Below are positions 2,575 to 61,122 of a stretch of DNA of 64,000 bases, one piece after another. Under the pieces are notes generated by a model that saw nothing but the letters and a program-made list of their open reading frames with translations, ran no database searches and was not told the origin of the DNA. Source of the stretch: an uncultured Alcanivorax sp. (GTDB taxonomy: Bacteria > Pseudomonadota > Gammaproteobacteria > Pseudomonadales > Alcanivoracaceae); assembly GCA_964391345.1 (NCBI GenBank), contig CAYMKZ010000002.1:69-64068 (forward strand), written 5' to 3'. Numbering within the stretch: the first letter of the stretch is position 1; every line of letters starts with the position of its first letter. The position numbers and the translations under genes were made by a program.

Positions 2575-3638
2575 TGGGCGCCTTCCAGCACCACCACCGG
2601 CTCACCGGAGCCTTGCTGGATTTCGCCGATCAGCCGCGCGTTTTCACCGGCCGCTTCCAGCAACGCCAGTGTCTGGTCCACGTGGGTGGCGGGCACCACC
2701 AGTACCATGCCGAGGCCGCAGTTGAAGGTGCGGTACATTTCCTGCTCCGGCACCTGGCCCTGCTCCTGCAGCCAGGTGAAGATTGGCGGCCACTGCCAGG
2801 CGCCGGTGTCGATCACGGCACGGGTATCGGCCGGCAGCACACGGGGCAGGTTTTCCGGCAGCCCACCGCCGGTGATGTGCGCCATGGCGTGGACCGGTAC
2901 CTGACGAATCAGCGTCAGCAGGGATTTCACGTAGATGCGGGTCGGTTCCAGCAGCAGCTCGATCACCGGCTGGCCGTCGATTTCGTTGCTGTCGGCCTGC
3001 TCCAGTATGCGGCGAATCAGGGAGTAGCCGTTGGAGTGAGGGCCGGATGAGGCCAGGCCGATGATACGGTCACCGGGCTGCACGGCGGAGCCGTCAATCA
3101 CGCCGTCGCGCTCCACCACGCCGACACAGAAGCCGGCAAGATCGTAGTCGCCACCCTGGTACATGCCGGGCATCTCGGCGGTTTCCCCGCCGATCAGCGC
3201 GCAACCCGCCTGCTCGCAGCCGGCGCCGATACCGGCCACTACCCGGGAGGCGGTATCCACGTCGAGCTTGCCGGTGGCGTAATAGTCGAGGAAGAACAGC
3301 GGCTCGGCACCGCCGACGATCAGATCGTTGACGCACATGGCCACCAGATCGATGCCGATATGGTCGTGCCGGTCGTGCTCCATGGCCAGCCGCAGTTTGG
3401 TGCCGACGCCGTCGGTGCCGGCCACCAGTACCGGGTTGCGGTAGCCTTCCGGCAACGCGCAGAGTGCGCCGAAGCCGCCCAGGCCGCCCAGCACTTCCGG
3501 CCGCCGGGTGCGTTTGGCCACCGGTTTGATGCGTTGCACCAGGGCATTGCCGGCATCGATGTCCACGCCGGCATCGCGGTAGGTCAGAGATTCTTTCTGG
3601 GCTCCCTTCTGATCAGAGGGGGGAGACTGTTTACTCAT
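2571..3638 (-). CDS. purM: Phosphoribosylformylglycinamidine cyclo-ligase (AIR synthetase)
   Basis: [47 protein letters not shown]. Confidence 0.97.
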
Positions 3639-56776: not shown

Positions 56777-57409
56777 ATGGGAGATTTGGAAAAAGCCACC
56801 CGCAAGGCGCAGGAATTCCGCCAGCGGGAGCAGCAGATTCTCGATGCTGCCTTGCAGTTGTTTCTGGACCTGGGGGAAGACCGGGTAACGGTGGAAATGA
56901 TCGCCGACCGCGTGGGAATCGGCAAAGGCACCATCTACAAGCACTTCGAGACCAAGAACGAGATCTACCTGCTGCTGATGCTGCGTTATGAAGAGGATCT
57001 TGGAGAATTGTTCGCCAGCATTTCCGAGCATGACGACAAGGAGCGGCTGGCACGCGAGTACTTCCGCTTCCGCATCAGCGATCCGGCCCGCTATCAGTTG
57101 TTTGACCGCCTTGAAAACAAGGTCATCAAGGATCATGTCGTCCCTGAGCTGGTGGAGCAGTTGCATCAGATTCGGGCGGCCAACTTCGATCGCCTCAACA
57201 GCATCGTGCAGGCGCGCGTCGATGAGGGCTCCCTGGAGCCGGTGCCGTCGATCTACCATATCTGCTCCGCCTGGGCGCTGGCCCACGGGGCGGTGGCGCT
57301 GATGCAGTCGCCGTTCTATCAGCGGCTGATCGACGACAAGGAGGATTTCCTCGATTTCCTCGTCGAGATCGGCATCCGCATGGGCAATCGCGGGCAGCGC
57401 GGCCGGTAA
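56777..57409 (+). CDS. TetR/AcrR-family transcriptional regulator
   Basis: ILDAALQLF...TVEMIADRVGIGKGTIYKHF helix-turn-helix; GAGGAG RBS. Confidence 0.93.
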   Translation: MGDLEKATRKAQEFRQREQQILDAALQLFLDLGEDRVTVEMIADRVGIGKGTIYKHFETKNEIYLLLMLRYEEDLGELFASISEHDDKERLAREYFRFRISDPARYQLFDRLENKVIKDHVVPELVEQLHQIRAANFDRLNSIVQARVDEGSLEPVPSIYHICSAWALAHGAVALMQSPFYQRLIDDKEDFLDFLVEIGIRMGNRGQRGR

Positions 57410-57474
57410 CCGTATCAACAGGTGGTGCATCAACAGACGAGAGCGCACCAACGTGGACCAGGACGGGGTGACAA

Positions 57475-58026
57475 ATGACTTCCAGGACCGAAGAACTGCT
57501 GGCGTTGCTGGAGAAGGCGGAACAGGACCAGCAGGGCCTGCCGCCGGTGCACCGGTGGCATCCTGAGCGTCACGCTGATATCGACATGCGCATTGCCCGC
57601 GACGGCACCTGGTTCTATCTGGGCTCGCCGATCGAGCGCCAGCGCATGGTGCGGTTGTTTTCCACCATCCTGTTACGTGAGGGCGATGATTATTTCCTGA
57701 TCACGCCGGTGGAGAAGCTGCGTATTCAGGTGGAGGATGCGCCTTTCGTGGCCATCGGTGTTGAACGGGTGGATGACAAGCTGGTGTTTCTGACCAATGT
57801 GGACAGCCATGTGGTGGCGGGTGCCGAGCATCCGGTGCATGTGGTGACGGATGCGCGCAGTGGTGAGCCGAGCCCTTATGTGTTGGTGCGTGACAATCTG
57901 CATGCACTGATTTCGCGCAGTGTTTTTTATCAGTTGGTGGATTGGGGGCGTCAGGAGGAGGACGACGCCGGGAGCCGGTTGGTGATCCACAGTGCGGGGG
58001 AGACTTTCGAGTTGGGGCGTCTCTGA
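57475..58026 (+). CDS. DUF1285-family protein
   Basis: PPVHRWHP, DMRIARDGTWFYLGSPI, LITPVEK, VEDAPF, PYVLVR. Confidence 0.88.
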   Translation: MTSRTEELLALLEKAEQDQQGLPPVHRWHPERHADIDMRIARDGTWFYLGSPIERQRMVRLFSTILLREGDDYFLITPVEKLRIQVEDAPFVAIGVERVDDKLVFLTNVDSHVVAGAEHPVHVVTDARSGEPSPYVLVRDNLHALISRSVFYQLVDWGRQEEDDAGSRLVIHSAGETFELGRL

Positions 58027-58031
58027 TTCAA

Positions 58032-58056
58032 GTGCTTGGTGCTTGGTGCTTGGTGC
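58032..58056 (+). repeat. Heptamer tandem repeat (GTGCTTG)x3.5
   Basis: GTGCTTG GTGCTTG GTGCTTG GTGC; an inverted partial copy GCACCAAGC lies at 58416-58424. Confidence 0.85.
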
Positions 58057-58065
58057 ACGGAAACC

Positions 58066-58177
58066 GTGCGTTCCCCGGACAGGGCTTTCCAGGACACGCC
58101 GTGAACCCGTCCCTGGGGGCTCGTTTCAGACATCCTTGTCTTCAACGGTCCTGGAAAGCCCTGTCCGGGGAACGCAC
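58066..58177 (+). repeat. 112-bp hairpin element, copy A
   Basis: Perfect 30-bp inverted arms (58066-58095 / 58148-58177) around a 52-nt loop. Confidence 0.92.
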
Positions 58178-58294
58178 TCCCTTTGGTGCGTACTTCACTT
58201 CCTTCCGCTTCGAGTCTCTGTGCGGCTCCGCTTCGAGCGGGATTCAATGTTTTACCATCCGGTCGGTAAAAACAGCAAATACGCACTGAAGTGA

Positions 58295-58406
58295 GTGTGT
58301 CCCCAAGCCAGGGCCTGCCGGGACCGTTGAAGACAGGGATGTCTGAAACGAGCCCCCAGGGATGGGTTCACGGCGTGTCCCGGCAGGCCCTGGCTTGGGG
58401 ACGCAC
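58295..58406 (-). repeat. 112-bp hairpin element, copy B, inverted relative to A
   Basis: 30-bp arms (58295-58324 / 58377-58406) with one G.T mismatch; loop is the reverse complement of loop A with 2 substitutions. Confidence 0.92.
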
Positions 58407-58442
58407 GGTTCGAGAGCACCAAGCCTCAAAGCCGGGCACAAC

Positions 58443-58457
58443 GCCCGGCAACAGGGC
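58443..58457. promoter_or_regulatory. Possible enhancer-binding protein (NtrC-type) site
   Basis: GCCC-N7-GGGC palindrome about 65 nt upstream of the -24 element; weak match to the NtrC consensus. Confidence 0.25.
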
Positions 58458-58520
58458 AGCAATGCGCCAGGTTGCTCAAACAAGTCATAAGAAACCCCAT
58501 AAAAAGCCCAGTCGAAAAAA

Positions 58521-58536
58521 TGGCACGGCTCTTGCT
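58521..58536 (+). promoter_or_regulatory. Sigma54 (-24/-12) promoter of the nirB operon
   Basis: TGGCACGGCTCTTGCT matches TGGCACG-N4-TTGCW exactly; 40 nt upstream of the nirB ATG. Confidence 0.82.
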
Positions 58537-58575
58537 TTACAAGCGATAACCCATCGCCAAAGGAGCAAGGCCAAG

Positions 58576-61122
58576 ATGATCCGTTGCAAACAGAAGCTGC
58601 TGTTGATCGGCCACGGCATGGTAGGGCAGCGTTTTCTGGAAGCCCTGGTTGCCCGTGGCGGGCTGGAGGCTTTCGAGGTCACGGTGCTGTGCGGCGAGCC
58701 GCGCCCGGCCTATGACCGGGTCGGCCTGACCCGCTATTTCAAGGAGCGGGATGCGGCGGCGTTGTCGCTGTTGCCGGAAGGTTTTCTGGCCGAGCACGGC
58801 ATCAAGCTGGAGTTGAATACCCGCGCCATCGCCATCGATCGTGCCGCCAAAACCGTTACCGCGGTAACTGCCGGAGAAAGCCGCAGTTACGCCTACCATA
58901 AGCTGGTGCTGGCCACCGGCTCCTTTCCCTTCGTGCCGCCGATTCCCGGCCATGATCGCCCCGGCTGTTTCGTCTACCGCACCATTGAGGATCTGGATGC
59001 CATCATCGGCGCCGCTGAAAAGGCCCGTGTAGGCGCGGTGGTGGGCGGCGGGCTGCTGGGGCTGGAAGCGGCCAAGGCGCTGCACGATCTCGAACTGGAA
59101 ACCCATGTGGTGGAGTTCGCGCCGCGCCTGATGGCGGCGCAGGTGGACGAGGCCGGCGGGGCGTTGCTGGGTGACAAGATCCGTGAACTGGGGGTTGGCG
59201 TGCATACGGGCACCGGCACGCGGGCCATCGTCGATGGAGCGCAACACGCGCACCGCATGGTATTTGCCGATGACGCCTTTCTGGAAACCGATCTGATCGT
59301 GTTTTCCGCCGGCATTCGCCCCGAGGATGCCCTGGCGCGTGAATGCGGTCTGGCCGTGGGTGAGCGTGGTGGAGTAGTGGTGGACGATCACTGCCGCACC
59401 GGGGATGACGACATTTATGCCATCGGCGAGGTGGCGTTGTGGTGCGGGCGGCTGTTCGGGCTGGTGGCGCCGGGTTATCAGATGGCAGAGGCGGCGGCCG
59501 GACATCTGTGCGGTGACGATGGCGCGGCGTTCCAGGGCGCGGACATGAGCACCAAACTGAAATTGATGGGCGTGGATGTGGCGTCCATCGGTGATGCCCA
59601 CGCCGTCACCGCCGGAGCGCGCAGCACGGTGTTCATGGACCAGCGCGCGGGCGTCTACAAGAAGGCGGTGGTCAGCGAGAGCGGCGACAAGCTGCTGGGT
59701 GCGGTGCTGGTGGGCGACACCGCCGATTACGGCACGCTGTTGCAGTTGTGTCTGAACAGCATGAAGTTGCCCGGCGACGCTGCGGCCCTGGTGGCGCCGG
59801 CGGCTTCCGGGGCGCCGCTGCTGGGCGCCGATGCGCTGCCGGCAAGTGCACAGATCTGTTCCTGCAACAACGTTTCCAAGGGCGACCTGTGCAGCGCCAT
59901 AGAGCAGGGCTGCCACAGCATTGCCGACCTCAAGGCACGGACCCGGGCCGGGACCACCTGTGGCGGCTGCGCGGCGCTGGTCAAGCAGGTACTGGACAGC
60001 GAGCTGGAAAAACGCGGGCTGGAGGTGAGCAACCATCTTTGCGAGCACTTCGCCCATTCCCGTCAGGAGCTGTATCACCTGGTGCGGGTGAAGCGCCTCA
60101 GGAGCTTTGCTGATCTGCTGGCGCGGCACGGTGAAGGTCACGGCTGTGATATCTGCAAGCCGGCGGTGGCGTCGATCCTGGCGTCCTGCTGGAACGATCA
60201 CGTACTGGAGCCGGAGCTGGCCGGTTTGCAGGATACCAACGACTACTTCATGGCCAACATGCAGCGCGATGGCAGCTATTCGGTGGTGCCGCGTGTGCCC
60301 GGTGGCGAGATCACGCCGGACAAGCTGATCGTGCTCGGTGAGGTGGCGAAGAAGTACGACCTCTATACCAAGATCACCGGTGGCCAGCGCGTTGACCTGT
60401 TCGGCGCCCGTGTCGATCAGTTGCCGGCTATCTGGCGCGAGCTGGTGGACGCCGGTTTCGAGTCCGGCCATGCCTATGGCAAGTCCATGCGCACGGTGAA
60501 ATCCTGCGTCGGCTCCACCTGGTGCCGCTATGGCGTGCAGGATTCGGTGGCCATGGCAATCCTTCTGGAGAACCGCTATCGCGGCCTGCGCAGCCCGCAC
60601 AAGATCAAGCTCGGCGTCAGCGGCTGCACCCGCGAATGTGCGGAGGCGCAGGGCAAGGATGTCGGCGTGATCGCCACCGAGAAGGGCTGGAACCTTTATG
60701 TGTGCGGCAATGGCGGCATGCGCCCGCGCCACGCGGAACTGCTGGCCGCCGATCTGGACGATCAGCAACTGATCCGCACCATCGACCGTTTTCTGATGTT
60801 CTACATTCGCACCGCCGACCGGCTGCAACGCACCAGCGTGTGGCGGGAGAGCCTGCAAGGCGGCCTCGATTACCTGCGCGAGGTGATCCTCGACGACAGT
60901 CTTGGCCTGGCGGCGGAGCTGGACAGCCAGATGGCGCACATCGTCGATACCTACCAGTGCGAATGGAAAGCCACGCTGGACGACCCGGAGAAACTCAAAC
61001 GCTTCCGGCATTTCGTCAACGATCCGTCGCCGGACGACAGCCTCGCCTATGTGCGCGAGCGCGGCCAGCGCCGTCCGGCTTACCCGCACGAACGCATCCG
61101 GCTTGTGGAATCAGTTCAGTAA
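58576..61122 (+). CDS. nirB: NAD(P)H-dependent nitrite reductase, large subunit
   Basis: GHGMVG, GGGLLGLEAA, CSCNNV..AGTTCGGC, CEHF..CDIC, CVGSTWCRYG, GCTRECAE; AGGAG RBS; about 848 aa. Confidence 0.95.
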   Translation: MIRCKQKLLLIGHGMVGQRFLEALVARGGLEAFEVTVLCGEPRPAYDRVGLTRYFKERDAAALSLLPEGFLAEHGIKLELNTRAIAIDRAAKTVTAVTAGESRSYAYHKLVLATGSFPFVPPIPGHDRPGCFVYRTIEDLDAIIGAAEKARVGAVVGGGLLGLEAAKALHDLELETHVVEFAPRLMAAQVDEAGGALLGDKIRELGVGVHTGTGTRAIVDGAQHAHRMVFADDAFLETDLIVFSAGIRPEDALARECGLAVGERGGVVVDDHCRTGDDDIYAIGEVALWCGRLFGLVAPGYQMAEAAAGHLCGDDGAAFQGADMSTKLKLMGVDVASIGDAHAVTAGARSTVFMDQRAGVYKKAVVSESGDKLLGAVLVGDTADYGTLLQLCLNSMKLPGDAAALVAPAASGAPLLGADALPASAQICSCNNVSKGDLCSAIEQGCHSIADLKARTRAGTTCGGCAALVKQVLDSELEKRGLEVSNHLCEHFAHSRQELYHLVRVKRLRSFADLLARHGEGHGCDICKPAVASILASCWNDHVLEPELAGLQDTNDYFMANMQRDGSYSVVPRVPGGEITPDKLIVLGEVAKKYDLYTKITGGQRVDLFGARVDQLPAIWRELVDAGFESGHAYGKSMRTVKSCVGSTWCRYGVQDSVAMAILLENRYRGLRSPHKIKLGVSGCTRECAEAQGKDVGVIATEKGWNLYVCGNGGMRPRHAELLAADLDDQQLIRTIDRFLMFYIRTADRLQRTSVWRESLQGGLDYLREVILDDSLGLAAELDSQMAHIVDTYQCEWKATLDDPEKLKRFRHFVNDPSPDDSLAYVRERGQRRPAYPHERIRLVESVQ

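Follow-up and report, generated by a model that had tools for sequence, protein, structure and literature searches.

The window analysed here is a stretch of 64,000 nucleotides from an uncultured Alcanivorax from soil (contig CAYMKZ010000002.1, positions 69 to 64,068), and the element in question lies between a gene for a DUF1285 protein, which has a best identity of ~74% to named Alcanivorax proteins, and the nitrite reductase gene nirB. A repeat search finds there two 112-nt hairpins in inverted orientation, copy A and copy B (Table 1), both enclosed by an outer inverted repeat of 153 nt that is 82% complementary. The 5' arms of the two copies differ at 7 of 30 positions (7, 11, 12, 14, 21, 23 and 26), with every change compensated on the partner arm; the sole imperfect pair in either long stem is one T.G in copy B, and the 52-nt inner parts show 2 differences, one of them a T/C in the inner loop. 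An earlier note, made from the letters of this stretch, had reported the positions and equal length of the copies, the compensated arms and the two loop differences, all of which we recovered from the sequence, and had placed the end of the repeat about 100 bp before a sigma54 promoter, in agreement with a sigma54-type motif of nirB that starts ~95 nt past the repeat end. The 28-nt loop motif has a chance expectation of 0 occurrences, the folding energies of the units lie between -82 and -91 kcal/mol, with z-scores near -10 to -11 relative to shuffled sequences, and a covariance model run without filters found no third copy in the 64-kb window. We read the element as a gene-less composite insertion, built of two inverted, diverged copies of a structured repeat unit and resembling miniature inverted-repeat transposable elements (MITEs) and the repetitive extragenic palindromes (REPs) with their bacterial interspersed mosaic elements (BIMEs), and we consider this reading, taken together with the RNA mechanism proposed below, as likely to be right as wrong.

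The supposed 52-nt loop is in fact a three-way junction with two small hairpins, P2 and P3, and each unit is laid out as 5'-P1-C-P2-GAGCC-P3-UUCACGGCGU-P1'-3' on the strand whose core reads GAGCCCCCAGGGANGGGUUCACGGCGU. P1 is a helix of 26-31 bp and of free sequence that closes the junction; P2 is a 9-bp stem, also of free sequence, with the hexaloop A-N-G-G-A-Y; P3 is a 3-bp stem, CCC/GGG, with the hexaloop A-G-G-G-A-N, both hairpins being capped by a C-ANGGAN-G hexaloop. Among 121 distinct copies, both hexaloops always contain GGA, start with A and are closed by a C-G pair. In the same copies 93.2% of the cells are paired, against 63.7% in column shuffles and at most 52% with slid partners; fitting the alignment to the model biases the figure towards the structure, but it exceeds both controls by a very wide margin. 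Double changes are present in all 12 modelled P1 pairs, which are the junction-proximal ones, and in all 9 P2 pairs. The two outer P3 pairs covary (CG 108, UA 12 and GC 1 for one, CG 109 and AU 12 for the other), changes in the GAG/UUC pairs always preserve pairing, and individual variants of P3 are CUC/GAG (the plasmid pDCA), UCC/GGA (site A of L124, a close relative) and UAC/GUA (L017/L060). Each unit has this structure and has conserved it. Two other drawings of the fold were rejected. A 6-bp P3 with an 8-nt loop, as drawn by ViennaRNA, was dismissed because the column that would pair with the invariant column 93 is variable, whereas the 3-bp P3 with its hexaloop covaries; a 'CGU/ACG' extension of P1 was ruled out by the covariation of the first P2 pair (GC 72, CG 26, UA 11, AU 3).

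The junction, of ~40-45 nt, is nearly invariant while the 30-bp stem around it varies freely. That stem pairing and loop sequence are kept separately had been suggested in the earlier note, and the double changes of P1 and P2 beside a nearly invariant core bear it out. The same pattern is seen at the four loci, all in Alloalcanivorax or Alcanivorax, that were retrieved from genomes by the 3' half of the loop (a sequence specific to Alloalcanivorax), where the loop is identical, the stem sequences are wholly different and the pairing is still perfect. An origin of the free stems as inverted target copies, or an insertion of the core into pre-existing palindromes, was discarded, as the arms are related by descent within lineages and change by compensated steps, and a short Stenotrophomonas allele proved to be a deletion at CACG microhomology. 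REP and MITE repeats usually have conserved ends and are species-specific; the present family reverses this, with the stem free and the junction kept. Conservation of the junction across several orders, and also inside an insertion sequence, points to a ligand common to many hosts. It could be argued that the units serve only as REP-like stabiliser, terminator or insulator hairpins whose conserved core has no ligand of its own, since they are long, GC-rich and intergenic and often lie just past stop codons, and REP elements are known for such roles. However, a plain hairpin has no need for a near-invariant junction, two identical hexaloops or a covarying P3, and a terminator scan found no U-tract intrinsic terminator at the units, which leaves this account with only a slim prospect of being correct.

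Table 1. Features of the composite repeat and its surroundings, in window positions (a dot marks features without a strand).
Feature	Position	Strand	Remarks
Segment absent from the empty allele: composite pair plus ~100 nt of extra DNA	58028-58514	.	Logan contig, run X8
Tandem heptamer (CTTGGTG)x3, outer flank of unit A	58036-58057	+	tandem scan; three exact copies of the reverse complement
Left arm of composite inverted repeat	58043-58195	.	unit A plus ~20 nt of flank on each side; repeat search
Unit A (copy A)	58066-58177	- (folding, 'GU' strand)	cmsearch 90.9 bits, E 1e-20; fold -85.8 kcal/mol on the folding strand, -81.9 on the complement
Unit A P1	58148-58177 with 58066-58095	-	arms of 30 nt, 100% complementary, 52 nt enclosed
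Unit A P2 hexaloop AAGGAT	reverse complement of 58132-58137	-	
Unit A P3 hexaloop AGGGAC	reverse complement of 58109-58114	-	closed by GGG 58115-58117 / CCC 58106-58108
Spacer between units	58178-58294	.	diverges and carries indels between strains
Right arm of composite inverted repeat	58277-58429	.	repeat search
Unit B (copy B)	58295-58406	+ (folding strand)	cmsearch 92.9 bits, E 4e-21; fold -91.2 kcal/mol
Unit B P1	58295-58324 with 58377-58406	+	arms of 30 nt, 97% complementary, 52 nt enclosed
Unit B junction C	58325	+	
Unit B P2	58326-58334 with 58341-58349	+	hexaloop AGGGAT 58335-58340
Unit B GAGCC	58350-58354	+	
Unit B P3	CCC 58355-58357 / GGG 58364-58366	+	hexaloop AGGGAT 58358-58363
Unit B 3' junction strand TTCACGGCGT	58367-58376	+	
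Extra segment with small hairpin GCCGGGC-ACAAC-GCCCGGC	58414-58514	+	absent from L124 and from the run X3 contig
Sigma54-type promoter motif TGGCAC-N5-TTGCT of nirB	58521-58536	+	context, outside the element; conserved in L124

Selection for folding acts on one strand only. In 73 non-redundant P1 stems, the non-Watson-Crick positions read on the opposite strand are A.C or C.A in 65 cases and G.T or T.G in 12 (p = 6e-10), and pyrimidine-pyrimidine mismatches number 52 there against 9 purine-purine ones. Read on the core-sense strand, the same mismatches are G.U, G.A and G.G, which are the mildest ones, and this folding strand is more stable than its complement by 4-8 kcal/mol; it is the mismatch asymmetry, together with the better folding energy, that identifies one strand as the one selected to fold. 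The folding strand is the plus strand in copy B, i.e. the direction of nirB, and the minus strand in copy A, and both in pairs and in the insertion sequence ISXa1 discussed below it runs 5' to 3' outward to the end of the element. The earlier note's proposal that the element acts in single-stranded form is strengthened by so strongly strand-asymmetric a mismatch spectrum.

The units belong to a family that is large, dispersed in Gammaproteobacteria and apparently undescribed. A metagenome scan with the 5' half of the loop (GTGAACCCNTCCCTGGGGGCTC) returned at least 119 stretches from marine, freshwater, soil and wetland sources, and the covariance model R1, built from 31 copies and run on the fetched loci, found 131 + 37 = 168 copies in ~140 loci, many of them without the exact 22-mer. 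A family of many copies that lacks its own transposase is what the earlier note had pictured, and this is supported. No Rfam family matches the element: an Rfam 15 cmscan of 57000-59500 at E up to 1 gave chance miRNA-like matches only (24 bits, against gathering scores of 85-160). Text searches of the literature, which also covered ISXa1 and a connection of CsrA to REP or MITE elements, returned nothing relevant and no description of the family. The hosts that could be named, on exact look-ups of 20 neighbouring proteins, are Marinobacter, Alloalcanivorax/Alcanivorax, Marinobacterium, Stenotrophomonas and Porticoccaceae, all of them Gammaproteobacteria; no copy of the unit was found in viral contigs. 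When 2711 neighbouring open reading frames were clustered, no protein family was common beyond close relatives, and the 3.3 kb between two units at L067, a candidate for cargo or a transposase, proved to be ordinary genes.

The genomic behaviour of the family is REP/BIME-like, in that the copies are intergenic (91 of 91 checked against called genes), numerous, and found singly, as divergent pairs and as alternating arrays. In Logan assemblies of genome runs the contigs break at the core, where the depth is ~5-60x that of the flanks. Neighbouring copies within 700 nt are arranged as (-,+) in 27 cases, (+,-) in 3, (-,-) in 3 and (+,+) in 0, i.e. 27 of 33 are divergent, with the 5' ends of the folding strands facing each other; the spacers of pairs measure 50-284 nt, and ~42% of the units that could be judged are paired. 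Two arrays resemble BIME clusters, one with five units alternating +,-,+,-,+ at spacings of about 200 and 266 nt (L024 3829-4823), and the other with three direct copies ~270 nt apart (L121 5629-6249). Of the 168 units, 8 have an exact tandem repeat with a period of 5-8 within 130 nt of their outer (3') side and 1 has such a repeat on its inner side, the background being 0.23% of random 130-nt windows; a contig of run X2 has one extra GTGCTTG and hence four heptamer copies outside unit A against three in the window. At L082 (86-186) lies a palindromised variant, in which the 5' core has been duplicated in inverse to give a perfect palindrome without the normal 3' half, which suggests template switching in the DNA. 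In Alloalcanivorax, classical REP-like sequences (GTAGGAGCGGCTTCAGCCGCGAT) adjoin the units at L001 190-260, L002 1860-1900 and L004 6540-6580, and at least two repeat families therefore coexist in these loci.

The DUF1285/nirB site itself occurs in several states. Relative to the allele of soil run X8, the whole pair appears as an insertion of ~390 bp, since a contig of that run joins 58027 to 58515 without the pair, with only CGGCCGCACCATTTTC between. The earlier note had proposed a comparison of empty and filled sites, and this allele is an empty one: the DUF1285/nirB gene pair of that strain occurs without the element, and the sigma54 motif adjoins its junction. Any upstream activator site of nirB would fall inside the 3' end of DUF1285 in the empty allele. 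The earlier note had also suggested that the element could insulate the nitrate operon from DUF1285 read-through; the units have no U-tract terminator, and the related strain does without the element altogether. In L124, whose DUF1285 is 97% identical, the same 16-mer CGGCCGCACCATTTTC directly follows unit B and copy B is unchanged, site A is occupied by a different member of the family with other arms and a degenerate core, and window positions 58414-58514 are missing; a run X3 contig likewise joins 58412 to 58514 without the extra segment. Between the window and L124 there are 0 substitutions in the 120 nt of 58291-58410, while the flanking genes have ~3 per 40 nt (about 7.5%), and at a uniform divergence of 7.5% the probability of no substitution over this stretch is ~1e-4. 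From the empty allele and L124, the insertion junctions share T or TT at most. In Stenotrophomonas, a variant contig of one pair has lost both cores by a deletion between CACG microhomologies. The element thus behaves as a MITE in the general sense, non-autonomous and present or absent between strains, as the empty X8 allele and the different left unit of L124 illustrate, and directly upstream of a sigma54 promoter the site exists in three natural forms, one empty, one with a heterologous pair and one with a homologous pair.

Several smaller features accompany the site. The stretch 58414-58514 replaces most of a 16-mer, CGGCCGCACTATTTTC, of the relatives, and includes CAGGGCAGCAATGCGCC, which loosely resembles the terminal repeat of ISXa1. 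Within the spacer, 58206-58238 holds the direct repeat TCCGCTTCGAG twice, 12 nt apart, and GTCTCTG is found both at the DUF1285 stop (58019-58025) and again at 58216-58222; these duplicates may be scars of an earlier insertion or replacement. A spacer palindrome at 58247-58273, TGTTTTACC-N8-GGTAAAAACA, is not conserved in L124. The sigma54-type motif, TGGCACGGCTCTTGCT, lies ~40 nt ahead of the nirB start codon (58577).

One carrier of the unit could be followed as a complete insertion sequence. On plasmid pDCA (Ancylobacter, Xanthobacter), two divergent units flank an ISAs1-family transposase gene of the WP_172687271 type, in the element that NCBI names ISXa1 (L131 2437-4008, equal to NZ_KU922118.1 21367-22938). 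Both units are enclosed by its 16-bp terminal repeats, CAGGGCAATCGCACTA, and by a 10-bp duplication, ACCCCAACCT, and hence the units moved as part of ISXa1. The same layout is found at L132, where the transposase is 87% identical to that of ISXa1, and L023 (3341-3601) holds a 260-bp ISXa1 derivative with the 16-bp repeats, one unit and a 7-bp duplication. The terminal inverted repeats of ISXa1 are ~170-240 bp long, with the hairpin units embedded in them, whereas its nearest relatives have the 16-bp repeats only and a transposase stop codon inside the right repeat; ISXa1 adjoins the haloalkane dehalogenase gene of pDCA. From ISXa1, L132 and L023 it can be hypothesized that the window pair is a classical MITE that descends from ISXa1, has lost the transposase gene and is moved by the DDE transposase of ISXa1. 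We consider this improbable. The repeat CAGGGCAATCGCACTA, with up to 2 mismatches allowed, is missing from 129 of 139 loci, the window included, and is present only in L023 and the insertion-sequence loci; the ends of ISXa1 match the other copies in the 32-nt core only; and the Alcanivorax copies have a different terminus, CTGGAGAG. Where the transposases are 59-75% identical, the insertion sequences retain the terminal repeats and are compact, without a unit, no ISAs1 gene or remnant was found near any copy outside ISXa1 or in the window, and the window site lacks the 8-10 bp duplication. Since the terminal repeat and transposase remnants are missing from most copies, and the compact relatives carry no unit, ISXa1 is one carrier and not the general mobiliser, although it is plausible as a vehicle for horizontal spread.

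The earlier note had called the element REPIN/MITE-like, and of this the MITE-like part, i.e. many copies and presence/absence polymorphism, stands, while the link to REPINs and to the REP-associated tyrosine transposases (RAYTs) finds no support in the window or the fetched loci. REPs are short palindromes of 20-40 nt with a GTAG/GTGG (or CGTC) tag at one end (PMC3733652); the unit is ~112 nt long, its P1 ends are free and 91 aligned copies show no conserved tag. As the note had observed, no transposase or RAYT gene is to be found in the window, of either the ISAs1 type or the RAYT type, and a search with an HUH-Y regular expression and tblastn with 40 homologues revealed no Y1/HUH open reading frame in the window or in 142 loci, nor a Y1 transposase near any of the 168 copies. 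A lead was offered by the RAYT-like gene Smlt1152 of S. maltophilia, which Di Nocera et al. (2013; PMC3733652) report to be flanked by self-complementary, closely paired TIR repeats. The protein sequence from the supplement of that paper led through homologues to three loci (L140-L142), where the covariance model finds no unit, and the gene is not flanked by one; the repeat there is GGGGTCAGATCCC...GGGATCTGACCCC. At positions 3115-3155 of these loci the 3' end of the Smlt1152-type tyrosine transposase gene overlaps the self-complementary GGGGTCAGATCCC-N-GGGATCTGACCCC, which belongs to the TIR family of that paper and is unrelated to the unit.

As to what the conserved junction might bind, the mechanism we prefer, and put forward tentatively, is that the folding strand acts as an RNA bound by CsrA/RsmA. 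The consensus obtained for CsrA by systematic evolution of ligands by exponential enrichment (SELEX) is RUACARGGAUGU, in which ACA and GGA never vary and GGA is placed in a hairpin loop (PMC4347634). In the window, the P2 sequences AGACAGGGAUGU (copy B) and AGACAAGGAUGU (copy A) each match 11 of 12 positions of this consensus, and the loop GGA, the RUACARGGAUGU / CANGGANG motif and at least two sites per molecule are all present in the sequence. As RNA, the two hexaloops, ~23 nt apart and held by the junction, would form a two-site ligand for a CsrA/RsmA dimer. A loop spacing of ~23 nt would suit one CsrA dimer, and CsrA/RsmA is common in Gammaproteobacteria, the class of all the named hosts. 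Transcripts reading outward through a unit would then recruit or titrate CsrA/RsmA. RNA-run contigs, which are unstranded, cover the spacer of a pair in Stenotrophomonas-like samples. It is possible but doubtful that the units go further than this and form a mobile RNA module, spread horizontally, which would leave a ready-made, high-affinity structure with two CsrA/RsmA binding sites at each place of insertion. Present in dozens of copies per genome, such modules could place new transcripts under Csr/Rsm control or jointly serve as a genome-encoded sponge of the regulator.

A number of observations weigh against this picture of an insertion that acts through RNA. Comparison with the empty allele and with L124 reveals no 8-10 bp target duplication at the window site, the empty allele could be a precise deletion instead of the ancestral state, and 166 of the 168 copies have no linked transposase. 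We found no sigma70-like outward promoter in the spacer, and single units past the 3' end of a gene are sense in 26 cases and antisense in 45, i.e. oriented independently of the genes. The conserved junction strands, GAGCC and UUCACGGCGU, are not explained by CsrA binding alone. Alphaproteobacteria are mostly without CsrA, and it is on alphaproteobacterial plasmids that ISXa1 sits. Finally, the strand asymmetry is no proof of RNA, because G.T wobble is tolerated in single-stranded DNA too, and it fits single-stranded DNA equally well.

Several of these observations fit a different view, in which the folded strand is single-stranded DNA, an HUH/Y1-like or other transposase or recombinase recognises the three-way junction in trans, and protein contacts the DNA at the GGA loops. 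The insertion between DUF1285 and nirB without target duplication, the independence of orientation from transcription, and the 3' end of the folding strand pointing to the terminus of the element would all suit such a view; G.T, G.A and G.G are the least destabilising mismatches in DNA as well, and the palindromised L082 and the microhomology deletions are hairpin events at the DNA level. Single units also show a modest bias of the folding strand to the C-rich strand (34 vs 15, p = 0.009), which is weak and confounded with gene orientation. However, there is no Y1 transposase near any copy, the Smlt1152 TIRYT loci are without a unit, and the close match of the loops to a known RNA-binding consensus would be left unexplained. 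We see the single-stranded DNA explanation as a real if unlikely alternative.

With the CsrA/RsmA-binding RNA as the preferred mechanism, another RNA-based explanation needs to be weighed at this locus in particular. Targets of ANTAR proteins consist of two hairpins whose hexaloops begin with A and have G as the fourth base (PMC8934654), and in Pseudomonas NasT controls nirBD by ANTAR dual-hexaloop antitermination (PMC10783516). Both loops of unit B fit A1/G4 and the unit reads in the direction of nirB, as would be expected if it were such an antitermination signal for the nitrite reductase operon. However, unit B precedes the sigma54 promoter, P3 is free of any overlapping terminator, units occur at more than 100 unrelated loci in either orientation, G3 and A5, which are not an ANTAR requirement, are invariant as well, and a related strain has nirB without the element. 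The nirB leader is only ~30 nt long, too short for an antitermination leader of the NalA/NasT type. An ANTAR/NasT signal is therefore very improbable here. The family is of the REP/MITE kind and falls outside REP/REPIN, ISAs1-derived MITEs, ANTAR targets and any Rfam family.

Should the CsrA reading be true, mobile DNA would be spreading targets of a global post-transcriptional regulator and rewiring its regulon, and the unit would offer a compact natural two-site ligand for the study of CsrA; should single-stranded DNA be the acting form, the junction would be the mark of a mobilising enzyme yet to be recognised. Whichever is true, many intergenic hairpins in Alcanivorax, Marinobacter and Stenotrophomonas genomes that are so far unexplained can be annotated with the covariance model, and the three alleles at the locus constitute a natural test of the effect of the element on nirB expression.

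Among known systems, CsrB, RsmY and RsmZ have hairpins like those of the unit, with GGA in a C-G-closed ANGGAN hexaloop. Unlike them, the unit has no dedicated small-RNA gene or GacA-type promoter, is dispersed in dozens of copies of either orientation, sits inside a 30-bp helix and matches none of the Csr/Rsm families of Rfam, its CsrA binding being a prediction. The ANTAR motif shares with it the two adjacent hairpins and the A1 and G4 of the hexaloops, but the unit has no overlapping terminator, no regulated operon leader, and loop conservation that goes beyond A1/G4. The TIR repeats of TIRYT genes (PMC3733652) are also self-complementary and in close pairs, and are found in S. maltophilia, which is a host of the unit too, although the Smlt1152 repeat differs from the unit in sequence. 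Correia/NEMIS elements of Neisseria and ERIC/IRU elements of enterobacteria are, like the present element, non-autonomous, 100-150 bp long, made of inverted repeats and polymorphic for presence; they are co-transcribed and fold into long hairpins, but keep their terminal repeats and make target duplications, whereas the unit has variable arms, a conserved centre and no duplication at the window. ISXa1 resembles the gene-less pairs in having one unit in each long terminal inverted repeat, in divergent orientation, while the window pair is without the transposase and the 16-bp terminal repeats. In organisation the units resemble REP, BIME and REPIN sequences, which are intergenic, multi-copy and foldable, come as singles, inverted dimers and alternating arrays often past gene ends, and are also thought to act single-stranded. 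The differences are that REPs measure 20-40 nt against 110 nt for the unit, which has no GTAG or CGTC tag, that REP/REPIN are associated with RAYTs while no RAYT or TIRYT gene was found with the unit in the window or the loci, and that a REP conserves its stem within one species, whereas the unit leaves its stem free and conserves its inner junction across orders.

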